Translations under genes and position numbers: made by a program
DNA from: an uncultured Candidatus Binatia bacterium
Lineage (GTDB): Bacteria > Desulfobacterota > Binatia > UBA9968 > CAXXLF01
DNA length: 64,000 bases
Assembly: GCA_965215595.1 (NCBI GenBank)
Contig: CBDCDW010000005.1
Span: 235,316 to 299,315, forward strand
Reading direction: 5' to 3'
Notes under the pieces: generated by a model
The model's database searches: none
Seen by the model: the letters and a program-made list of their open reading frames with translations, nothing else
What the model was told of the DNA's origin: nothing
In this document: piece by piece, positions 24,587 through 34,973 of the stretch
Layout: the number at the start of each line of letters is the position of its first letter
Numbering within the stretch: the stretch's first letter is position 1

Positions 24587-25678
24587 TCATTTTATGACCT
24601 TTGTCGCTTGCAGGAGAAGGGACGGTGGGATCGTCACACCGAGAGCCTTCGCTGTCTTGAGATTTATCCTGAGTTCGAATTTCTTTGGCCGCTCTATGGG
24701 AAGGTTCCATGGATTCGCGCCCTTGAGGATCTTGGCTACGTGGGTAGCAGCCTGGCGGTATAAATCTAGGATGTCTGTGCCGTAGGACATGAGTCCACCT
24801 GCATTCACAAATCGGATTCGATCGTAGATCGCCGGTAACTGCCTCTCCCTCGCAAATTTTATGATCCGTGCTCGATTTGCTACGCTCGCACCCCCGGCTG
24901 CAGTAACCGATAGCCCTTCCGCTTTCCGGCTAATTTCGGATAAGGTTGTCTCAATGTCATTACGGTGAACAATCACGGATTGGACCTGCATACCCAAAGC
25001 CTTTCCTTCGGCTTTGATTTCTTCTTCCCAACGTTCCTTTTGGTCCTCACTCAAGAGCATGGTCACACGGGAAATGTGGGGGAACACCTCTTTGAGTAGT
25101 TCTAGTCGCTTTCCATATAACTCTGCTCTTAGGTCAGCTATCCCTGTCATATTGCCGCCGGGCCTTGCGAGGCTGACAACATAACCAGCCTCAACTGGAT
25201 CAACTCGACTCCCTGACATAACAATAGGGATCGTGCTGGTTGCCCGCTTCGCAGCGCGAGTCGGATTCCTACCCGGCGAGGTGAGAATGACATCAACCTT
25301 GAGCCGAACCAGCTCAGCCGCAACCTCCTGGAGCCGTTCCTTGTCACCTTTTCCGTTACGGTACTCGATAACGTAGTTTTGTCCGTGAACAAACCCGAGC
25401 TCCCGCATTCCTTGCTTGAAAGAAGCGAGTTGGCCAATCTGTGCTTTAGTCCAGCGGTAGGACAGATAACCTATGCGGTAGACTTTCTTTGGCTGCTGCG
25501 CCTGAATTTGGGAGACAGTTAGCAGAAGGACAGCAAGCAGTAGGCAGAAAGAAACAAAGATACTTCTGGTCACCCGTTTTTCTCCCTTCTTTTGCTGCTG
25601 TTTGCATTCTGCTCGCTCCCAACCGTTCTGATTGGTTACCATCGAATCCTCCTTGTCATCTAATCGCCTGCCGGTCAT
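24587..25678 (-). CDS. PF04392-type substrate-binding protein, paralogue 3 (apparently intact)
   Basis: Signal/TM SIFVSFCLLLAVLLLTVSQIQAQQ, then KVYRIGYLS...TIPIVMSGSRVDPVEAGYVVSLARPGGNMTG...NLPIERPKKFELRINLKTAKALGVTIPPSLLLQATKVIK. Confidence 0.65.
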   Translation of the reverse strand: MTGRRLDDKEDSMVTNQNGWERAECKQQQKKGEKRVTRSIFVSFCLLLAVLLLTVSQIQAQQPKKVYRIGYLSYRWTKAQIGQLASFKQGMRELGFVHGQNYVIEYRNGKGDKERLQEVAAELVRLKVDVILTSPGRNPTRAAKRATSTIPIVMSGSRVDPVEAGYVVSLARPGGNMTGIADLRAELYGKRLELLKEVFPHISRVTMLLSEDQKERWEEEIKAEGKALGMQVQSVIVHRNDIETTLSEISRKAEGLSVTAAGGASVANRARIIKFARERQLPAIYDRIRFVNAGGLMSYGTDILDLYRQAATHVAKILKGANPWNLPIERPKKFELRINLKTAKALGVTIPPSLLLQATKVIK

Positions 25679-25860
25679 ATCACTAACTCAACTCATTGAG
25701 CAATGCGCGTGCCTAGCCTATGGGATTGCTCTGAATTTAGATAAGGTGCTGAATTGGTACGAGAATTTTCGTGCGGGGATTTTAGAAGATGCTGGAACAA
25801 GAAGGAAAAGTGTAGCTTTTTTGCTACACCTGTGTAGCATAAATGCATCACCGGAAATTC

Positions 25861-26331
25861 TTAGGGCAGCGTAATATGAGGTCGCTTTTCAGCTGAAGGA
25901 GAATTTAAACGACGCTTAATTTGCATCACAAGGGCAAAAAAGCCCGTTAGTATAGCCAACACTAATGTCCAAAGGACCGAAGTCCTTTTTTGCCTCGAAT
26001 CTTCCAATGAGGGTACGGCATCAAATCTTAGGCGATTCGTTACGTTAGGGTCGTCGATACCTCTCCATTGAATTTTATTTGCATCGATTCCATCGACTCG
26101 CACGAAGGAAGAATCGCTCTCCCCCTGATCAGCATTACTTTTCCTATTAATGACTTGCTTGATTTTATCAGGAAGCCTTTTAATCGTCTGGACGACCACT
26201 TTAGTTTCCTTTAATACAAAAGTCGGCTCCGGACGATCCAGATCCCAGACATCCTCTTGCTGCGCTCTGGCAGTAGAGCGAATCGCCAACAGCAAAGCGC
26301 ACAGTGCAAAACAAAATAATTTCATAGGCAT
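25861..26331 (-). CDS. Hypothetical protein with N-terminal signal peptide and C-terminal hydrophobic segment
   Basis: MPMKLFCFALCALLLAIRSTARAQQ... then ...VLWTLVLAILTGFFALVMQI. No recognisable domain. The 3' end overlaps a weak copy of the dispersed repeat. Confidence 0.35.
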   Translation of the reverse strand: MPMKLFCFALCALLLAIRSTARAQQEDVWDLDRPEPTFVLKETKVVVQTIKRLPDKIKQVINRKSNADQGESDSSFVRVDGIDANKIQWRGIDDPNVTNRLRFDAVPSLEDSRQKRTSVLWTLVLAILTGFFALVMQIKRRLNSPSAEKRPHITLP

Positions 26332-26349: not shown

Positions 26350-27145
26350 GGGTAGAGTAGAGGACAGGCTTAGCTTGCTTTAGGCCGCACCTTGGCTGTA
26401 TCCGCCGTTTCCAGCTTCGTGCCCGTTTAGGCACTTCCGTAACAAGCGTTCCTGTCCCCCCTCATCAAACCGTACTTGCAGTTTTCCCGCATACGGCTTT
26501 CCGATCATCTTCATCTCAAGGCATGCGAGGCCGCCTATTGAGCTCCCTCTTGGCCTTGAGATACAGTCTCCGCTAGAGGTCTCGAATCTTGTTAGGTGTT
26601 TGTAGCCTCACGGCAATCACCTCTCCTTCCCTCTTTAAGAGACACAATGAAAGTAGGGCGCCTTCCCTCAGCCGGCATTACCCAGCCTCCTCGGTAATAC
26701 TCGCCCCTCCGACTTCTCGCCCGCCTGACCCTGACTTCGGTTTCCCTTATACCGAGCCATTGCGGCTATCACCCGCGACAAACGAGATCTCCCGCGTTAC
26801 CCATCACAACTTCCCCCACATGCCGTCCCGACGACCCCGGAGAGCCCATCTGCTTCTGTCTCGGTTATTTCCACAGATGGCACCGGCCTTCCCCATCTGA
26901 CCACAGGGTCGGCACTCTCAATCAGCAAGTTACGAGGCTCTATGGGTTCCCTAGTAGTACGGCCTGCGAGTTTGCGATCCTCTCCTTTTGGAAAGTTTTC
27001 TCGATCCACTTAGCCCTGAGAGTCACCCCTCAAAACCGGATCTTCGCTAGCGGGGTGAACCGTTAATTCCCCGCACCGGACTTTAACCGGCAAGTTGCAC
27101 TGCTTCCGCGGCATACGGTCAGGTCTTGACGGGCTGTTGCCCAAA
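26350..27145. repeat. ~796-bp repeat, copy 1 (>99% identical to 28697-29492)
   Basis: Direct comparison shows only two mismatches, both near the right end. The identical spurious ORFs 26589..26900 and 28936..29247 in the track reflect this. Confidence 0.9.
26439..27076 (-). ncRNA. Putative ORF-less group II intron (ribozyme only), copy 1
   Basis: On the minus strand the element starts GTGCG (complement of 27072-27076) and contains a textbook domain V near its 3' end: aAGCcgtatgcggGAAAActgcAAgtacggttt. That is a 9-bp lower stem beginning with the AGC triad, an AA bulge, a 4-bp upper stem and a GNRA-like loop (complement of 26467-26499). A hairpin region follows and ends ...gttac. There is no room for an intron-encoded protein. 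Confidence 0.55.
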
Positions 27146-27160
27146 CGTCGGTTAAATATC
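27130..27160. mobile_element. Solo ~31-bp terminal fragment of the IS1182-family element (matches its right inverted repeat), abutting intron copy 1
   Basis: cgggctgttgcccaaacgtcggttaaata versus the IS end cgggctgttgcccaaacctcggttaaata (33289-33317). The sequences diverge after that. Confidence 0.6.
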
Positions 27161-27394
27161 TCAGGGGACTTCTCAGGGGACATTGCGACTCTTGTGGCTT
27201 TTTATAAATAATTTCTCATGCCTCCTGGTCCCTGCTTGAGCAGGGGGGGTACGCTGGCCTAATTGTTATTCGAGAATTACCAGTGCTGTGCGAGGTCGTA
27301 ATCGAAATCCTTGATAGGCTTAATGTTGAACTAATTCCTATTTGCTGACCTTCACGAACCTCCTCCCTTGATAAGCTTTTAATGAATAACCCCA

Positions 27395-27690
27395 TGACCA
27401 CATTTCCGGGTCGGACCAAGGTAACTGATTGATATAGAATGTGAAGATTGTAAAAACGAGGCAAATTTAGTGCTTAAAATGGAAGTTTCGATAACAAAAA
27501 TGCAGGGCTAAGGAAAGATTGGGTTGATGAATTTGTGAGAGGTGGTAAACGGTGGAAACAAACTTCCGGAACCAGCCATTCCTTGCAATAGGGATTTCGA
27601 CTCTAAAAATTCGATTTTAAGCGAGAACAGCACTTACTTTTAGAGTGAACCCATTAAGATTTCAACCTGAAAGCTTGGTCCGACCCGGCT
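27395..27690. repeat. MITE-like element: ~290-bp AT-rich segment bounded by imperfect ~30-bp inverted repeats (ccgggtcggaccaag... / ...cttggtccgacccgg), with an internal 8-bp-stem hairpin ctctaaaa/ttttagag
   Basis: 27402-27417 ccgggtcggaccaagg is the reverse complement of 27668-27683, and similarity continues for ~15 bp more. There is no coding potential. Confidence 0.35.
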
Positions 27691-28075
27691 AGCGGCTAGC
27701 AGTGTCCCGCTCTGTCCGAAAAACCAACTTCAGGTTGACATAACAGCTCGCGATTGGATATTGCCGGCTCAGAAGCACAAAGCTTGGGCGGTTTGCCGCT
27801 CCAGTCGTCGCTGGGAGCCCTCGAAGGCGGGCACGAGGAGGCTACTCGCGGCAATTTTCGACTTTTTCACGGCCATTCCCGAAAAGCGACTTCCTATCAG
27901 TTTAAATTTCCTATATGTATTGGTTGCTCGCATAAAGTTAGACCAGCTGGAAACGGACGACGTGCTCGATCGGGCGATCGACTATCGCGCCGTGATTGCC
28001 ACGGCAGCAATCGAGGTCATGGTCGAGCTGCGGTAAATAGGGCTGCTAGGCAGTATAGATACAGGGAGATATACA

Positions 28076-28621
28076 ATGACACGCATTAGCATTCTGACGC
28101 CCGACGAGATGAACGATGAACAGCGCGCAGTGATCGACGCGTCCAAGGCCAACGGCAAGCCGCATGGCGGGCCATTCTGGGCCTATATCCGCAATCCCAA
28201 ACTAATGCAGAACGTCCAGGACACAGGAGCCTGTATCGCCGACAGCACCCTGTCCGCCCGCGAATCACAGATCGCCATCTTGACCGTGGCGCGGTTCTGG
28301 GGCGCCAAATACCCGTGGGCGGTTCAATGCCGCAACGCTCTTAAAGTTGGACTCACGCAGGAAGAGATCGACGCCATCAACGCCCGCGGCGCGCCGCCAA
28401 CCGATGACAAGCGTGAATTGCTCGCGCATCAGGTCGCCAATGAACTGCTCGCCGACAAGGGTTTAAGCGATGCCACCTACGCATCCGCCGAATCATCCTT
28501 TAGCACCGAAGAGCTGGTGGCTCTAGTTGCCCGCGTCGGCTCGTTCTCGATGACGTGTTGCACCGCCAACGCATTTGATATCACGCCGCCCGATGAGGTA
28601 CCTGCGCGCCTTAAGGCATAG
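28076..28621 (+). CDS. Carboxymuconolactone decarboxylase (AhpD-like) family protein
   Basis: 181 aa; ...ESQIAILTVARFWGAKYPWAVQCRNALKVGLTQEEID... is typical of the CMD/AhpD helical fold. A conserved Cys is present (not a CxxC pair). The gene is high-GC and lies between the two intron-like repeat copies. Confidence 0.65.
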   Translation: MTRISILTPDEMNDEQRAVIDASKANGKPHGGPFWAYIRNPKLMQNVQDTGACIADSTLSARESQIAILTVARFWGAKYPWAVQCRNALKVGLTQEEIDAINARGAPPTDDKRELLAHQVANELLADKGLSDATYASAESSFSTEELVALVARVGSFSMTCCTANAFDITPPDEVPARLKA

Positions 28622-28696
28622 CAAACGCGTTGGAGCTCAATTGACAGCGCCAAATCCGACGAATGGTCTGCACAGGATCTATTAGGGGTCATATTA

Positions 28697-29492
28697 GGGT
28701 AGAGTAGAGGACAGGCTTAGCTTGCTTTAGGCCGCACCTTGGCTGTATCCGCCGTTTCCAGCTTCGTGCCCGTTTAGGCACTTCCGTAACAAGCGTTCCT
28801 GTCCCCCCTCATCAAACCGTACTTGCAGTTTTCCCGCATACGGCTTTCCGATCATCTTCATCTCAAGGCATGCGAGGCCGCCTATTGAGCTCCCTCTTGG
28901 CCTTGAGATACAGTCTCCGCTAGAGGTCTCGAATCTTGTTAGGTGTTTGTAGCCTCACGGCAATCACCTCTCCTTCCCTCTTTAAGAGACACAATGAAAG
29001 TAGGGCGCCTTCCCTCAGCCGGCATTACCCAGCCTCCTCGGTAATACTCGCCCCTCCGACTTCTCGCCCGCCTGACCCTGACTTCGGTTTCCCTTATACC
29101 GAGCCATTGCGGCTATCACCCGCGACAAACGAGATCTCCCGCGTTACCCATCACAACTTCCCCCACATGCCGTCCCGACGACCCCGGAGAGCCCATCTGC
29201 TTCTGTCTCGGTTATTTCCACAGATGGCACCGGCCTTCCCCATCTGACCACAGGGTCGGCACTCTCAATCAGCAAGTTACGAGGCTCTATGGGTTCCCTA
29301 GTAGTACGGCCTGCGAGTTTGCGATCCTCTCCTTTTGGAAAGTTTTCTCGATCCACTTAGCCCTGAGAGTCACCCCTCAAAACCGGATCTTCGCTAGCGG
29401 GGTGAACCGTTAATTCCCCGCACCGGACTTTAACCGGCAAGTTGCACTGCTTCCGCGGCATACGTTCAGGTCTTGTCGGGCTGTTGCCCAAA
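28697..29492. repeat. ~796-bp repeat, copy 2; ends in the left inverted repeat of the IS1182-family element
   Basis: See copy 1. The offset is 2347 bp. Confidence 0.9.
28786..29423 (-). ncRNA. Putative ORF-less group II intron, copy 2
   Basis: Identical to copy 1 (offset 2347 bp). Confidence 0.55.
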
Positions 29493-31108
29493 TCAATAAT
29501 TTCAGTGCGTTAACAGAACTCTCTGGTTATAATGCTCTCAGTTATTCTCAATTATTATAGGGAGCAAAGCCATGATGGGTCATCAGCCACCCTCTCAGCC
29601 TGCACTATTCTACACAGGATTTAATTTGGAAAAACGGATTCGTGCGGACCACATGTTGCGCAAAGTAGCACGGATGGTGGATTTTGATTTTGTGTACCAA
29701 GAAGTCAAGGATCGATATGGATACAACGGCAACGTATCGGTTGCACCGCCAATGATAATAAAGCTGATGATGCTTTTGGTGCTCTACAACGTTCGTAGCG
29801 AGCGAGAGTTGATGGCAACGTTGCCGGAGCGGCTAGACTGGTTGTGGTTTTTGGGATTGGAGTTGGATTCGGAGATACCGCACCATAGCGTGCTGAGCAA
29901 GGCGAGGAGGCGTTGGGGTGTAGAGTTGTTTCGATCCTTTTTCGAGCGAGTCGTGTGGCAGTGTGTGGAGAGCGGGTTAGTGGACGGGAGTAAGCTTTTT
30001 TGCGACTCCAGTTTGATTGAAGCGGATGCTTCACGCAACTCGGTTATAGACACCCAGGGGCTTAGACGTTACCTGAGCCCAGCATACAAGGAGTTGGAGG
30101 CACGATTAGAGGAGCGGGAAGAGGCAAGAGAGGACAACCATGAGGATCCACCCGAGAACCCTCCCCGGCGTAACGTTGTCAACCAGCGCTACGTGTCGGC
30201 AACCGATCCAGATGCCTCGGTGGTACGCAAGGGAAAGAAGGGGGACTCTAAGCTGCGTTATCAGACCCACCGTGGGATCGACGGGGCGTATGGGGTAATT
30301 ACCGCGACGGTGGTTGGCCCTGGGGACGAGAACGAAGCACATCGCATGACAGAGCTTCTCCAGGATCATCAGGCCCATACCCAACGAAGTGCCCAGGTGG
30401 TGGTAGCCGATAGCAAGTACGGGACAACAGCTAATTTCTTAGATTGCTACGACCGTGGGATATTGGCACACATTCCGGTGTTGAAACAGACCCAGGATAA
30501 GCAGGAGCGTCGGAGCAAGATATTTCCTGAAAGTATGTTTGTTTATGACCCAGAAACCGACACTTATACATGTCCTGCCGGGCAACCGCTTAGGCGGCGT
30601 AAGCACTGGGTGGAGCGCAAGGCGTTTGAGTACGTGACGAGCCGCGGGGTGTGCCAGCAGTGTACCTTGCGGCTTCAATGCACTCGTTCTCAAAGTGCGG
30701 GGCGAACCATCAAACGCCATGAGCGCCAGGAGATATTGGATAGCGTGCGTATGCGAGCACAGAGCCCATGGGCAAGAAGAGATATCAAGGTCCGTCAGCA
30801 TTTCATGGAACGATCGTTTGCTCAAGGGAGACGATATGGACTGAAACGAGCGCGGTGGCGTGGTCGTTGGCGGGTGCAGATTCAAGATTACTTGATAGCG
30901 ATTGTGCAGAACATCGAGCTATTGATTAATCATGCACGGCCAAAACCAAGAGCGGTTTTGGCTGCAGCAACGAAGGTGGCCATTCGCTTTGCGACCCACC
31001 ATCCCACGGCCTTGCAGCAAGCCGTGGTGGTTTGAGCAAACAAACACCGCACGTTATAGCTCGGTTGGATCTATTGCGCTATTTAACCGAGGTTTGGGCA
31101 ACAGCCCG
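29477..31108 (+). mobile_element. IS1182/IS5-family insertion sequence, copy 1 (1632 bp; 16-bp terminal IRs cgggctgttgcccaaa / tttgggcaacagcccg)
   Basis: Perfect terminal inverted repeats. It carries a single transposase ORF at 29572..31035 and is identical in length and nearly identical in sequence to the inverted copy at 33289-34920. Confidence 0.8.
29572..31035 (+). CDS. IS1182/IS5-family DDE transposase (DUF772 N-terminal domain + DDE_Tnp_1)
   Basis: PALFYTGFNLEKRIRADHMLRKVARMVDFDFVYQEV...YGYNGNVSVAPPMIIKLMMLLVLYNVRSEREL is the characteristic IS5-group N-terminus. A C-terminal Cys-rich region follows (CPAGQPL...CQQCTLRLQC). Confidence 0.8.
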   Translation: MMGHQPPSQPALFYTGFNLEKRIRADHMLRKVARMVDFDFVYQEVKDRYGYNGNVSVAPPMIIKLMMLLVLYNVRSERELMATLPERLDWLWFLGLELDSEIPHHSVLSKARRRWGVELFRSFFERVVWQCVESGLVDGSKLFCDSSLIEADASRNSVIDTQGLRRYLSPAYKELEARLEEREEAREDNHEDPPENPPRRNVVNQRYVSATDPDASVVRKGKKGDSKLRYQTHRGIDGAYGVITATVVGPGDENEAHRMTELLQDHQAHTQRSAQVVVADSKYGTTANFLDCYDRGILAHIPVLKQTQDKQERRSKIFPESMFVYDPETDTYTCPAGQPLRRRKHWVERKAFEYVTSRGVCQQCTLRLQCTRSQSAGRTIKRHERQEILDSVRMRAQSPWARRDIKVRQHFMERSFAQGRRYGLKRARWRGRWRVQIQDYLIAIVQNIELLINHARPKPRAVLAAATKVAIRFATHHPTALQQAVVV

Positions 31109-31411
31109 TTGAATCTTGGCATAAGCCTTTCATGGCCGACTCAATTGAAGGAGCAATGAGCGTGCCGATCCAACACGACTACCCGGACTTAAGCCAGGTG
31201 CTGAATTGGTGAGGGAAATTTTTAGCAGATAAATTTAACGGAGCTTGCCGGGAAAGGCGTAAGTGTAGCTTCCTTGCTACACCCCTGTAACAAAAATGCT
31301 CCAGCAGAATTCGGAATCTTTAGGCCCTATTTCCACACCAGATGCTATTAATCGAGAATTAATTGCATCTCATGCACGACTCAAAGTACTGAGTGCCGTG
31401 AACACTCTGGG

Positions 31412-31798
31412 TTAGAGGGCCGCAACACAGGCGATCTCGATCAGGTAGTCCGGATTTGCCAGGCCTTTTACCACCACAAGGGTACTCGTAGGCGGAGTTC
31501 CTTTATAATATTGACTACGAACCCGACCATAACCCTCGCGATATTTTATGTCGGTGATGTAGGTCGTGGTCATCACCAGGTTTTCCGTGGTCGCGCCGAC
31601 CTCCTTGAGTACGGCCTCTATATTCTGAAAGACCTGCTTCGCCTGAGCTTCAATATCGCCTTTGCCAACGACGTTGCCGTTTTTGTCGCTGGCCGTTTGG
31701 CCAGCAATAAAAAGCAATTTGCCCGGCTGTGTGACGATACCCTGCGAATAGCGTGGTCTGGGATCTGACAAACCTTGCGGCTGAATAACTTCTTTCAT
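31412..31798 (-). CDS. ridA: RidA/YjgF/UK114-family enamine/imine deaminase
   Basis: 128 aa; ...QAKQVFQNIEAVLKEVGATTENLVMTTTYITDIKYREGYGRVRSQYYKG..PPTSTLVVVKGLANPDYLIEIACVAAL is a typical RidA C-terminus. Confidence 0.75.
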   Translation of the reverse strand: MKEVIQPQGLSDPRPRYSQGIVTQPGKLLFIAGQTASDKNGNVVGKGDIEAQAKQVFQNIEAVLKEVGATTENLVMTTTYITDIKYREGYGRVRSQYYKGTPPTSTLVVVKGLANPDYLIEIACVAAL

Positions 31799-31881
31799 GG
31801 TCTCCCCCTTTGTCTTGTTGCACTCACATCCTAAATCAAAATTATCTGCCTTTAAAATATTGGTCAGGTCTTGAATCTTGG

Positions 31882-32592
31882 CTACGCCATAATTTTACTA
31901 ATCGTTGAGTAATGCATCTTAAGATATTCTGCAACCTCCCGTTGGTTGTATCCATAACTTTTGACCGCCTCTTTGATCAACCTGTCTCTTGCTCCCTTAT
32001 CCTTCCGTCCCTTTCCATGGAACAACCTCTCTAGCGATGGACGGCTTATATATCTCTCTGCTTTCGGTATCTCACGAAGCTCTTCATAACCCTTTACGTA
32101 ACCAATGAGCTTGTCAACAAAATCCTCCTCCCTTAATATTTGCCCTCTAACTTGGCTATAGATACGCTGCCCACCTACTCCCTCCTTCACAAACTTTTCA
32201 TATAACTTTTGTGCTCTTTTGCGTCTGTTTCCAAAATGAGCTAGCACCCAATCTGTTGTTAGGCATCCATGAGGCGCTCCTCTCCCCGTCGTCCCACGGT
32301 AACTACTCCATTTCCACTTGCCAGCCTCTGAAACCACCGCAGCTCGAACAGGGTTTAGTACAACGTATCGACAAACTTCTAAACAATGGCTTTCCTTTTC
32401 CACCAATATGGACTTATATCGACCTTCAAATATGTGGCCTGTCCTATGGTGCTTACGGTTGTGATCTTGCGTATAGACACCGTTCAGTTGCCTCATGCCA
32501 CTAGCCAAATTCCCATCCGGCGTTTCTATCACCAAATGATAATGATTGTTCATTAGGCAGTAACTGTGACATAGCCAGTGGTAGCGATCCAC
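31882..32592 (-). CDS. HuH Y1 (IS200-like/REP-associated-type) tyrosine transposase with C-terminal HTH-like extension
   Basis: HuH motif NNHYHLVIETPDGNL, downstream Tyr-containing block (RYKSILVEKE...RYVVLNPVRAA), and C-terminal ...NQREVAEYLKMHYSTISKIMA. 236 aa. Confidence 0.55.
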   Translation of the reverse strand: MDRYHWLCHSYCLMNNHYHLVIETPDGNLASGMRQLNGVYTQDHNRKHHRTGHIFEGRYKSILVEKESHCLEVCRYVVLNPVRAAVVSEAGKWKWSSYRGTTGRGAPHGCLTTDWVLAHFGNRRKRAQKLYEKFVKEGVGGQRIYSQVRGQILREEDFVDKLIGYVKGYEELREIPKAERYISRPSLERLFHGKGRKDKGARDRLIKEAVKSYGYNQREVAEYLKMHYSTISKIMA

Positions 32593-32728
32593 GACCTCTT
32601 TGAGTCGGTTTAAAAACTGATGCCTTTCCTGCTCGTCTCTAAAGATGGATTGGCGAGCATTACCGCGGGAGGTAATGTGGTACAGGGCCCCTGGATAATG
32701 AAGAACCCCGTGGCAAGACCACGGGGTA

Positions 32729-33169
32729 TCAGAAGAGGCTCAGCTGACGAAGTTCTCCCACACCTTTGCCTTGGCTCTCCACATAGTTCTCTACAGCCCT
32801 CCAGTTGCCCCGCTCTCCGACTGTCCCCACGTAGTAACCGTCTGTCCAAAACTCCCCACCCCAAAGCTCCTGTCTTACCTCCGGCTTCCTACGAAAGATC
32901 TCCCTCGCCGTAATGCTCTTGAATACTCGTACAATCTGCCCCGGCGAGATCTTCGGATGCGCCGTGCATAGAAGATGAATATGCTCTCTGTCGCACCCTA
33001 TCGTTTCCATCTCTATATCATAGCGCTCGCTGATCCCCTTGGCTGTTTCCACGATGATCCCTACCACTTCCTCGCTCAAAAGAGCCTTCCTATATTTCAC
33101 CGGAAACACAATATGATAGTGAATCTGCCACGCACAATGACTACCTTTCTCAACCTCGCCTGCTCCCAT
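32729..33169 (-). CDS. tnpA: IS200/IS605-family transposase TnpA (HuH Y1)
   Basis: IHYHIVFPVKYRKALL (HuH), HIHLLCTAHPKISPGQIVRVFKSITAREIFRR, and catalytic Tyr region ...GYYVGTVGE. 146 aa. Confidence 0.75.
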   Translation of the reverse strand: MGAGEVEKGSHCAWQIHYHIVFPVKYRKALLSEEVVGIIVETAKGISERYDIEMETIGCDREHIHLLCTAHPKISPGQIVRVFKSITAREIFRRKPEVRQELWGGEFWTDGYYVGTVGERGNWRAVENYVESQGKGVGELRQLSLF

Positions 33170-33288
33170 CCACCCATGCTACTATAAGGTGTCCCCGTGG
33201 CAAGACCACGGGGAATTACAAGTTCAATTCGAAGTGGTCGTGCCATTAATCGTTTCTACCGTGAAGAGAGACCATATTCAATAATCAA

Positions 33289-34920
33289 CGGGCTGTTGCC
33301 CAAACCTCGGTTAAATAGCGCAATAGATCCAACCGAGCTATAACGTGCGGTGTTTGTTTGCTCAAACCACCACGGCTTGCTGCAAGGCCGTGGGATGGTG
33401 GGTCGCAAAGCGAATGGCCACCTTCGTTGCTGCAGCCAAAACCGCTCTTGGTTTTGGCCGTGCATGATTAATCAATAGCTCGATGTTCTGCACAATCGCT
33501 ATCAAGTAATCTTGAATCTGCACCCGCCAACGACCACGCCACCGCGCTCGTTTCAGTCCATATCGTCTCCCTTGAGCAAACGATCGTTCCATGAAATGCT
33601 GACGGACCTTGATATCTCTTCTTGCCCATGGGCTCTGTGCTCGCATACGCACGCTATCCAATATCTCCTGGCGCTCATGGCGTTTGATGGTTCGCCCCGC
33701 ACTTTGAGAACGAGTGCATTGAAGCCGCAAGGTACACTGCTGGCACACCCCGCGGCTCGTCACGTACTCAAACGCCTTGCGCTCCACCCAGTGCTTACGC
33801 CGCCTAAGCGGTTGCCCGGCAGGACATGTATAAGTGTCGGTTTCTGGGTCATAAACAAACATACTTTCAGGAAATATCTTGCTCCGACGCTCCTGCTTAT
33901 CCTGGGTCTGTTTCAACACCGGAATGTGTGCCAATATCCCACGGTCGTAGCAATCTAAGAAATTAGCTGTTGTCCCGTACTTGCTATCGGCTACCACCAC
34001 CTGGGCACTTCGTTGGGTATGGGCCTGATGATCCTGGAGAAGCTCTGTCATGCGATGTGCTTCGTTCTCGTCCCCAGGGCCAACCACCGTCGCGGTAATT
34101 ACCCCATACGCCCCGTCGATCCCACGGTGGGTCTGATAACGCAGCTTAGAGTCCCCCTTCTTTCCCTTGCGTACCACCGAGGCATCTGGATCGGTTGCCG
34201 ACACGTAGCGCTGGTTGACAACGTTACGCCGGGGAGGGTTCTCGGGTGGATCCTCATGGTTGTCCTCTCTTGCCTCTTCCCGCTCCTCTAATCGTGCCTC
34301 CAACTCCTTGTATGCTGGGCTCAGGTAACGTCTAAGCCCCTGGGTGTCTATAACCGAGTTGCGTGAAGCATCCGCTTCAATCAAACTGGAGTCGCAAAAA
34401 AGCTTACTCCCGTCCACTAACCCGCTCTCCACACACTGCCACACTACTCGCTCGAAAAAGGATCGAAACAACTCTACACCCCAACGCCTCCTCGCCTTGC
34501 TCAGCACGCTATGGTGCGGTATCTCCGAATCCAACTCCAATCCCAAAAACCACAACCAGTCTAGCCGCTCCGGCAACGTTGCCATCAACTCTCGCTCGCT
34601 ACGAACGTTGTAGAGCACCAAAAGCATCATCAGCTTTATTATCATTGGCGGTGCAACCGATACGTTGCCGTTGTATCCATATCGATCCTTGACTTCTTGG
34701 TACACAAAATCAAAATCCACCATCCGTGCTACTTTGCGCAACATGTGGTCCGCACGAATCCGTTTTTCCAAATTAAATCCTGTGTAGAATAGTGCAGGCT
34801 GAGGGGGTGGCTGATGACCCATCATGGCTTTGCTCCCTATAATAATTGAGAATAACTGAGAGCATTATAACCAGAGAGTTCTGTTAACGCACTCAAATTA
34901 TTGATTTGGGCAACAGCCCG
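33289..34920 (-). mobile_element. IS1182/IS5-family insertion sequence, copy 2 (inverted relative to copy 1)
   Basis: Same IRs as copy 1. The transposase at 33362..34825 differs from copy 1 by ~2 aa. Confidence 0.8.
33362..34825 (-). CDS. IS1182/IS5-family DDE transposase (copy 2)
   Basis: 487 aa, essentially identical to 29572..31035. Confidence 0.8.
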   Translation of the reverse strand: MMGHQPPPQPALFYTGFNLEKRIRADHMLRKVARMVDFDFVYQEVKDRYGYNGNVSVAPPMIIKLMMLLVLYNVRSERELMATLPERLDWLWFLGLELDSEIPHHSVLSKARRRWGVELFRSFFERVVWQCVESGLVDGSKLFCDSSLIEADASRNSVIDTQGLRRYLSPAYKELEARLEEREEAREDNHEDPPENPPRRNVVNQRYVSATDPDASVVRKGKKGDSKLRYQTHRGIDGAYGVITATVVGPGDENEAHRMTELLQDHQAHTQRSAQVVVADSKYGTTANFLDCYDRGILAHIPVLKQTQDKQERRSKIFPESMFVYDPETDTYTCPAGQPLRRRKHWVERKAFEYVTSRGVCQQCTLRLQCTRSQSAGRTIKRHERQEILDSVRMRAQSPWARRDIKVRQHFMERSFAQGRRYGLKRARWRGRWRVQIQDYLIAIVQNIELLINHARPKPRAVLAAATKVAIRFATHHPTALQQAVVV

Positions 34921-34973
34921 GATAGACCTGACCCCACCCTAGAGGGAGGTGGGATCGGCATGAAATGATAGGA

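Follow-up and report, generated by a model that had tools for sequence, protein, structure and literature searches.

Two identical ORF-less group II introns beside IS1182-like elements: a probable non-autonomous derivative mobilised in trans

Two copies of an ORF-less group II intron, identical at 765/765 nt, lie on the minus strand of the window (the whole 64-kb stretch of DNA analysed here; Table 1) and very probably represent a non-autonomous form, mobilised in trans, of a mobile, IIB-like group II intron lacking an endonuclease. The locus provides a clean natural example of such an intron caught soon after a new insertion, with identical donor-like and new copies, an exact empty site in sister strains and at least eight 'driver' copies, in an En-minus lineage with IIE/IIF-type features that has seen little experimental study. 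The understanding of how group II introns work is left unchanged.

Each copy matches the Rfam models RF02005 (group-II-D1D4-6; 91.7 bits against a gathering score of 49, E=2e-24, full model length) and RF00029 (domains V/VI; 47.9 bits against a gathering score of 40), so that the Rfam search suggested in the first-pass annotation bears out its recognition of two minus-strand group II introns. The near-identical copies of ~800 bp that it described correspond to an exact repeat of 768 nt (26350-27117 = 28697-29464, 100% identity). The intron ends were fixed by alignment with relatives and with four strain variants that have an exact empty copy-2 site, which rules out the ends proposed earlier. 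The GTGCG at 27077 that had been taken as the 5' end is internal, at intron positions 40-44, the true start being GUAUG at 27116 (copy 1) and 29463 (copy 2), while the 3' end, formerly placed ~35 nt beyond domain V (GTTAC, ~26440), is the ...CUCUAC at 26352 and 28699, 115 nt past domain V, a distance explained by the length of domain VI, a 109-nt structure supported by covariation. The 3' terminus is ...UAC. The 5' terminus of the window sublineage, including its full-length, active-looking copies, is GUAUG, a variant of the GUGYG consensus, and GUGCG is present in relatives ~83-87% identical to the window intron. As the ends had been misplaced, the apparent extension of the repeat by ~90 bp and ~69 bp past the splice sites was an artefact: it continues for only 2 nt past the 3' splice site and for 29 nt on the 5' side, made up of 13 nt of exon (2 mismatches) and a 16-nt IS end. 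The CMD-family gene reported between the copies is indeed there and is a bystander, which in other strains adjoins the site lacking copy 2.

Table 1. Positions of intron, exon and IS features in the window
Feature	Position	Strand	Remarks
Intron copy 1	26352-27116	-	765-nt ORF-less group II intron, 5' GUAUG ... CUCUAC 3'; Rfam, relatives
Intron copy 2	28699-29463	-	765-nt ORF-less intron, same sequence as copy 1
Domain V, copy 1	26467-26499	-	Copy 2: 28814-28846; RF00029 alignment, RNAalifold
Domain VI, copy 1	26355-26463	-	Copy 2: 28702-28810; 109-nt branched domain, RNAalifold
EBS1, copy 1	26897-26902	-	Copy 2: 29244-29249; complementary to CUGACC
Domain IV IEP-gene remnant, copy 1	26516-26620	-	Copy 2: add 2347; tblastn, pairwise alignment to L029
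Remnant GTG start and N-terminal codons, copy 1	26573-26620	-	In-frame TAG at end
Deletion junction, copy 1	26524-26547	-	Junction alignment
Last codons and stop of former ORF, copy 1	26516-26536	-	
5' exon, copy 1	27117-27129	-	UCAAGACCUGACC; IBS1 = 27117-27122
5' exon, copy 2	29464-29476	-	ACAAGACCUGAAC
CMD-family gene	28076-28621	+	Between both intron copies; Pfam PF02627, E=4.7e-8
Solo IS end, IRR-type, ~35 nt	27130-27163	-	13 nt upstream of copy 1
IS-A, 1632-bp IS1182-like	29477-31108	+	Left end 13 nt upstream of copy 2
IS-A transposase, 487 aa	29572-31035	+	Pfam DDE_Tnp_1_6 and DUF772
IS-B, second IS copy	33289-34920	-	99.5% identical
Unoccupied target motif GACCTGACC	31862-31870	-	Without IS or intron; just past Y1_Tnp/HTH stop codon

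In sequence the ribozyme is complete, comprising domains I-III, the domain IV base, domain V and a domain VI of enlarged size. Domain V shows the AGC triad and AA bulge already recognized at first reading, together with a 5-nt GAAAA loop (described then as of GAAA type), and its pairs are invariant or compensated across 10 sequences compared with RNAalifold. The D5/D6 fold of 10 sequences (RNAalifold) has compensatory changes at 12 of 47 pairs and places a bulged branch-point A at 26358 (28705 in copy 2), at intron position 759/765 and 6 nt before the last base, in keeping with the 7-8 nt to the 3' splice site that is usual for group II introns, within a 13-bp basal stem of domain VI whose distal extension is supported by covariation. 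A consensus fold of 9 distinct ribozymes, a check of the kind suggested beforehand, contains 218 pairs of which 35 are compensatory and supports the domain I-IV architecture. EBS1 is the GGUCAG at intron positions 215-220, in a domain I loop, and pairs with the last six exon nucleotides, CUGACC; exon variants UUGACC, CUGGCC and CUGAUC still pair with it through G-U (more than 15 sites), and the copy 2 IBS1, CUGAAC, has one mismatch. A search for an EBS2/IBS2 interaction gave no convincing pairing.

The alignments show the window copies to be internal deletions of a full-length RT/maturase-encoding intron. They lack ~1.23 kb relative to the full-length intron L029, and full-length relatives align on both sides of a ~1.23-kb insertion encoding RVT_1+GIIM proteins. 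Remnants of ~27 N-terminal codons (tblastn) and ~8 C-terminal codons lie on either side of the deletion, and the domain IV base has kept the former ORF's start and its ribosome-binding site. As the first-pass annotation had observed, neither copy encodes an IEP: domain IV of the window copies holds only remnants of the RT/maturase ORF, the N-terminal one being all that tblastn recovers, and no RT gene was found anywhere in the 64-kb window. The IEP of the full-length introns is a 441-aa RT/maturase with the Pfam domains RVT_1 and GIIM only, without a D/En (endonuclease) domain, and it matches solved group II RTs (GsI-IIC RT, E=2e-57). Contig ERZ25069191:ctg586975 (2,188,772 bp), on which this locus with both ORF-less copies (L071) is found too, encodes the exact 441-aa protein (P0127) at five positions, and a 1.04-Mb contig of that assembly encodes it at another three. 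The search for further copies and an RT/maturase gene that had been recommended thus gives at least eight full-length P0127-encoding copies, counted in the genome of this near-identical strain, which is other than the window's assembly. Between the window copies and the resident full-length ribozymes identity is 96.4%, and one full-length copy occupies a site in L081 that is empty in L062.

ORF-less copies with the window junction also occur elsewhere, one complete (L061), one 3'-truncated (L069) and others truncated (L086/L087); a metagenome scan with the deletion-junction 24-mer returned only two matches, both truncated. ORF-less forms are found in three sublineages and several taxa, with 86-88% identity to the window intron (93.5% for L061). 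A single ancient ORF deletion common to all of them was rejected, because the junctions differ among forms of 765, 751 and 759 nt and because the window copy is closer to the resident full-length introns than to the other ORF-less forms. Conceivably, the occurrence in three sublineages and several taxa of much the same deletion, placed just within the domain IV stem, could point to a long-lived, MITE-like class of non-autonomous introns as opposed to a short-lived by-product. If the ORF-less copies were immobile, decaying relics, dead deletion products that merely persist, the missing IEP, the in-frame stop in the ORF remnant and the non-consensus GUAUG would all be expected. Such a reading is very unlikely however, given that the two copies show 100% identity and the presence of copy 2 varies between strains, that the same junction recurs in copies elsewhere, and that the catalytic elements are all intact, with base pairs kept by compensatory change.

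All copies of the intron lineage are located at (GA)YYTGACC/C(C) (slashes mark element or splice boundaries), and the recognised exon sequence, (GA)YYUGACC/CC, contains no IS sequence. The spliced exon junctions predicted for the window copies are ...GACCUGACC/CCACCUUGG and ...GACCUGAAC/CCUAAUAUG. Exon-to-exon BLAST gives only the short motif, which excludes the exons as part of a longer repeat or REP, and a homing site at the 3' end of a Y1_Tnp/HTH gene holds for one empty window motif and for L029 and not generally. The target motif occurs five times in the 64 kb, where ~2 occurrences would be expected, and most of the five lie where an IS or an intron is inserted.

The IS1182-like elements, which have ends CGGGCTG...CAGCCCG, 4-bp duplications and a transposase matching DUF772 (E=1e-15) and DDE_Tnp_1_6 (E=9.5e-18), are separate from the intron, each having its own preference for one short motif. 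The IS prefers NNNN/GAYYTGACC at independent loci, with the 4-bp duplication directly upstream of the motif; the IS insertion preference therefore overlaps the intron target, and this is why IS ends and introns are repeatedly found 13 nt apart. The left end of IS-B abuts an unoccupied intron target, GATA/GACCTGACC/CC (34925-34933). The possibility that AGACCTGACC belongs to the IS is ruled out, because IS-A and IS-B, despite their near identity inside, differ at 4/13 positions there, and because the motif occurs beside either IS end and was present before the IS, as an empty IS site in L081 demonstrates. A promoter-like site (29583->29554) faces copy 2.

IS1182 sequences do lie beside both intron copies as the first-pass annotation stated, as a full IS at copy 2 and a solo end at copy 1, although not in direct abutment, 13 nt of exon lying between. 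A first interpretation of this arrangement, that the intron homes specifically to a site which the IS1182 terminus creates or is part of, in an obligate association, draws on the fact that window copies 1 and 2 and the full-length L079 are each exactly 13 nt from an IS end, but is highly improbable. At least 14 other copies of the intron lineage, ten of them full-length, occupy the motif and only L079 has an IS nearby; with 50-70 nt of 5' exon examined, no IS end was seen at nine of the ten full-length copies or at the ORF-less L050, L044, L026, L061 and L069. The exon sequence common to the copies is limited to the 9-10 nt beside the splice site, an IS adjoins the motif without an intron at many loci, and in L081 the motif is older than the IS.

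Comparison of the window with six strain variants of the locus (L070-L075) instead identifies copy 2 as a recent insertion. Copy 1 is present in all six. An intron occupies the copy-2 site in the window and in L070 and L071, and the site is empty in L072-L075, where the sequence ACAAGA(C or T)CTGAAC/CCTAATATG matches the predicted intron ends exactly. IS-A is already in place in 4/4 of the variants with the empty site, and copy 2 is therefore a recent insertion and not part of a duplicated IS-end segment. The second interpretation offered earlier, in which a block of IS end plus intron was duplicated around the CMD gene, would call for recombination or a rearrangement mediated by the IS and for no intron mobility, and could appeal to the 29 nt of upstream flank, including the 16-nt IS end, taken in by the repeat and to a locus that is prone to rearrangement. 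It is scarcely tenable in view of the IS-A-bearing empty sites, and three further observations oppose it: the solo end at copy 1 is IRR-like (over 35 nt its complementarity to the IS-A right end is 91%) whereas copy 2 faces the IRL of a complete IS, the 5' exons differ at 2/13 positions against 0/765 in the intron, and identity ends 2 nt beyond the 3' splice site.

For mobilisation in trans, the intron RNA would be transcribed and then spliced with assistance from the 441-aa RT/maturase, which full-length copies at other genomic positions would supply. The RNP so formed would reverse-splice into DNA where EBS1 can pair with CUGACC followed by C, and the inserted RNA would be copied to DNA, probably from a replication-fork primer since the IEP has no endonuclease domain. 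Copy 2 probably arose recently by this route, at a near-cognate site that lies 2.3 kb from its most likely donor, copy 1. We infer that trans-mobilisation, already proposed in the first-pass annotation, is the best explanation for the ORF-less copies, and it is well supported by the full-length P0127 copies in the genome of the near-identical strain that carries the locus. Against it stand the RT-free 64-kb window, the single mismatch between EBS1 and the copy 2 IBS1, the want of an assignable EBS2/IBS2 pairing and the departure of the 5' end from GUGYG, though this departure is common to the full-length copies. Hydrolytic endonuclease ribozymes (HYERs) were reportedly described in Science in 2024. 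That the window intron is likewise a protein-free ribozyme with its own function, HYER-like or as a regulatory RNA, and not a parasite of the full-length intron, would agree with the spread of ORF-less forms over three sublineages and several taxa and with the protein-free self-splicing of IIE/IIF ribozymes in vitro (PMC3753933), but merits hardly any credence. Complete insertion with exact ends, and a domain IV that has kept its base and the start region, are as expected for IEP-dependent retromobility; copies of full length that encode an identical IEP abound in the same genome, and no sign of a host function was seen.

Elements of this type are already known; the ORF-less introns of Thermosynechococcus elongatus offer a close parallel. 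The T. elongatus introns are chloroplast-like IIB introns with IEPs of the En-domain type, unlike the window lineage, which is En-minus with IIE/IIF-type RNA features. In T. elongatus the ORF-less introns (TeI3 families) keep N- and C-terminal ORF remnants and owe their mobilisation to 'driver' IEPs that TeI4 introns encode (Mohr et al. 2010, PMC2882425); the window copies similarly have an internal deletion in domain IV that takes out most of the ORF and leaves remnants of both ORF ends in a disrupted frame, and full-length relatives in the same genome that would supply the RT/maturase. More generally, a bacterial intron without an ORF is nearly always accompanied in its genome by related introns that encode an IEP (PMC4424553), and to call the present intron unusual was an overstatement given this known pattern (PMC4424553, PMC2882425). 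Trans mobility was shown experimentally in T. elongatus whereas here it is read from sequence, and the ORF-less copies seen here are few in number, unlike in T. elongatus. A cyanobacterial origin was ruled out, no HIP1 motif being found.

On RNA and IEP domain features, as distinct from IEP phylogeny, the intron resembles class F (IIF) and class E introns such as Ge.ur.I1, Pe.th.I2 and D.a.I1 (PMC3753933, PMC3552965), sharing with them a IIB-like ribozyme, a domain V loop of 5 nt and a domain VI that is long and highly structured (PMC3753933), an IEP of RT and X domains only, a compact ribozyme (~740 nt without the ORF here) and hosts that include Deltaproteobacteria-type lineages. It differs in a ribozyme slightly above the quoted 450-700 nt and in the GUAUG 5' end of its sublineage. 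Class C (IIC) introns insert just after a terminator or attC hairpin and have an IBS1 of 3-4 nt; here the IBS1 is of 6 nt, no conserved upstream hairpin was found and the exons have only a short motif in common. RmInt1 lies in ISRm2011-2, and the window intron is likewise beside an IS, in non-essential intergenic DNA, but lies outside it and reads no IS sequence. Group II introns in or beside IS and other mobile DNA are recorded by Dai & Zimmerly (2002), as far as that work is cited in PMC4424553.

With the idea of intron homing to the IS corrected, the short target motif common to the two elements is a modest curiosity for research on target choice. It is rather unlikely, though conceivable, that the overlap is not coincidental and that an IS1182-like DDE transposon and the intron share the 9-nt motif GAYYTGACC through convergence or a functional coupling; an IS end might for example act as an outward promoter that expresses the adjacent intron, or the motif might mark a 'safe-harbour' sequence used by both elements. 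The IS itself resembles the IS1182 family member IS1272 in its DUF772 and DDE_Tnp_1_6 transposase and short terminal inverted repeats (PMC5678879), although IS1272 replaces stem-loops with no target duplication (PMC5678879) while the window IS makes its 4-bp duplications at a preferred motif.

The two copies form an exact direct repeat of 768 nt in a self-comparison of the window (26350-27117 and 28697-29464), beyond which 12 nt with two mismatches lead into a common stretch of 16 nt (27130-27145 and 29477-29492). Both copies, read on the minus strand, exceed the gathering scores of two Rfam group II intron models, RF02005 (group-II-D1D4-6; 91.7 bits at E=2e-24, spanning the full model) and RF00029 (domains V/VI; 47.9 bits); repeat, Rfam and domain matches thus confirm the core first-pass observation of two group II intron-like copies around a CMD-family gene with an IS1182-type neighbour. 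Relatives, gathered by a domain V pattern scan of GTDB genomes followed by BLAST, comprise ORF-less introns of Syntrophobacteraceae (L050), Deltaproteobacteria (L044) and Binatia (L026) with 86-88% ribozyme identity, and ORF-containing introns (L029/L046, L033 and L056) with 83-85%. In all of them similarity extends from GUGCG/GUAUG-CCGCGGAAGCAG to ...CUCUACUCUAC and outside it the sequences have nothing in common apart from a short motif in the exons; these common limits give the window introns a length of 765 nt. The GTGCG originally taken as the 5′ end lies at intron positions 40-44, and the 3′ end as first placed falls within domain VI.

Feature coordinates at the window locus, with loci of target-like repeats elsewhere
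Feature	Position	Strand	Remark
Intron copy 1	27116-26352	minus	765 nt
Intron copy 2	29463-28699	minus	765 nt
CMD-family protein gene	28076-28621		between intron copies
IS-A, IS-B	29477-31108, 33289-34920	plus, minus	IS1182-like
IS1182-type transposase ORFs	29572-31035, 33362-34825		487 aa; DUF772 + DDE_Tnp_1_6
Sigma-70-like promoter match	29554-29583	minus	ATGACC-18-TATAAT
IS200-like element	32700-33250	minus	Y1 TnpA ORF 32729-33169
RAYT-like Y1_Tnp+HTH gene	start ~33244; body 32700-31882		MARPLRIEL at start
26-nt direct repeat	25744-25769, 31196-31221		85% identical
ORF resembling gene-start fragment	25632-25874
Target-like tandem repeats	L062		left of IS
Target-like tandem repeats	L066		3′ exon of full-length intron
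Target-like tandem repeats	L061		3′ exon

Domain VI spans 109 nt and has a 13-bp basal stem and a branched distal part, with a bulged A 6 nt ahead of the final intron base. Among 10 sequences compensatory changes occur in 12 of the 47 pairs predicted for the D5-D6 region, and the whole-ribozyme consensus fold has 218 pairs, 35 with such changes. The 5-nt domain V loop (GAAAA here), the long structured domain VI and an endonuclease-less intron-encoded protein (IEP) are all likenesses to the IIE/IIF lineages (PMC3753933), and the length of domain VI would point to IIF. The domain V pattern used in the scan was seen at no fewer than 14 loci (among scan loci L002-L059) of the MAG ‘uncultured delta proteobacterium MFD05674.bin.2.49’; the lack of similarity to the window intron outside domain V marks them as a different, high-copy intron family.

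A search of public assemblies for the exact CMD protein revealed six strain variants of the locus. All six carry copy 1; L070 and L071 share copy 2 with the window, and it is missing from L072-L075, where the empty site reads IS end, ACAAGA(C/T)CTGAAC, CCTAATATGACCCC, both exons being joined exactly at the predicted splice sites. These empty alleles already carry the IS and the two copies are identical at 765/765 positions; copy 2 thus arose by recent insertion of the intron, which rules out a duplicated block, the earlier proposal that an intron-containing IS-end segment had been duplicated around the CMD gene. A full-length intron is likewise polymorphic (L081 filled, L062 empty). Base -2 of the copy 2 5′ exon (window 29465; ~6390 in L070) is C in L070, matching the copy 1 exon, and A at every empty site as well as in L071 and the window; either co-conversion from the donor or a sequence error in a contig of 4x coverage may account for the C.

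Aligned with full-length relatives, the window copies lack ~1.23 kb of domain IV. The ribosome-binding site, GTG start and ~27 N-terminal codons (VIAVRLQTPNKIRDL, ending at an in-frame TAG) are kept 5′ of the deletion and the final few IEP codons and stop 3′ of it, and in the consensus fold these retained parts build the domain IV stem AUCUCAAGGCC/GGCCUUGAGAU that closes the one-time ORF loop. Junctions differ slightly between the three ORF-less sublineages (765, 751 and 759 nt), just inside this stem, and resident full-length introns resemble the window copy more closely (96.4%) than other ORF-less forms do, so that repeated loss of the ORF, at positions that the structure tolerates, is probable. 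The exception, L061, has the same junction as the window copy at 93.5% identity, which indicates that this form has persisted to some extent.

As first annotated, no intron-encoded protein is present at the locus, the 64-kb window containing no RT gene. The lineage IEP has 441 aa with RVT_1 and GIIM and no endonuclease domain, and solved group II RTs are among its homologues (GsI-IIC RT, E=2e-57). Its exact sequence, P0127, is encoded at five places on contig ERZ25069191:ctg586975 (2,188,772 bp), which also bears the window locus with both ORF-less copies (L071), at three further places on a 1.04-Mb contig of that assembly, and in the source sample of L070. At all 10 loci examined, each a different site, the full-length intron measures 1985 nt (1984 nt in L082). 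Help in trans is thus available in a genome bearing the ORF-less copies; that they use it we infer from the precedent of the Thermosynechococcus elongatus ORF-less introns (PMC2882425) and the general rule stated in PMC4424553. The T. elongatus introns closely parallel the overall biology of the window intron, which is a well-documented further example of known ORF-less intron biology and of modest interest.

Every intron copy is preceded by (GA)YYUGACC and followed by C(C), and the last six exon bases pair with a domain I loop sequence, GGUCAG at intron 215-220, variants being G-U-compatible. Next to several target sites lie short tandem repeats similar to the target, for instance CCCTTGACC... 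and four units of CCCCTGACT. The IS (1632 bp, ends CGGGCTG...CAGCCCG) makes 4-bp duplications, with five clean cases (TTTT, TATG, GATA, TTCT and CAAA). One of its ends, either one, abuts NNNN-GAYYTGACC in 9-10 of 12 distinct insertions, and in the single empty/filled pair (L081 versus L062) the empty IS site in L081 shows that the motif predates the IS. The IS therefore favours, on its own account, a motif overlapping the intron target. The preferred arrangement, seen across both window elements, L060-L069, L079 and L081, places the duplication immediately upstream of GAYYTGACC in either orientation. Other IS1182-family members use palindrome targets without duplication (PMC5678879); the preference here is sequence-specific, whereas stem-loop replacement is reported for IS1272. 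That the intron homes to a site created by the IS, as once suggested, is contradicted by the prior existence of the motif and by 9 of the 10 full-length copies, which have no IS end in the 50-nt stretch of 5′ exon inspected. Instead, overlapping target preferences explain the three intron-IS pairs (both window copies and L079) without dependence between the elements, neither site being destroyed by the other element because the IS enters 13 nt upstream of the intron insertion point. The motif common to two unrelated elements is the only real oddity.

The putative promoter within the left end of IS-A, a consensus match only (10/12), points outward to copy 2. Between strains (window versus L072, L074 and L075) the region 29477-34920 is structurally polymorphic: the window has the second IS copy in inverted and L072/L075 in direct orientation, and in L074, where the 2.2-kb RidA/Y1_Tnp segment is missing, just one IS separates the CMD and Rieske genes. 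The lack of matching 4-bp duplications at several IS copies points to IS-IS recombination. The IS200-like element, with hairpins CCCCGTGGTCTTGCCACGGGG at its bounds, has inserted close to the 5′ end of the RAYT-like gene. The 26-nt repeat marks a short plus-strand gene-start fragment (MSVPIQHDYPDLSQVLNW, then a stop) right of IS-A, resembling part of the ORF listed in the table.
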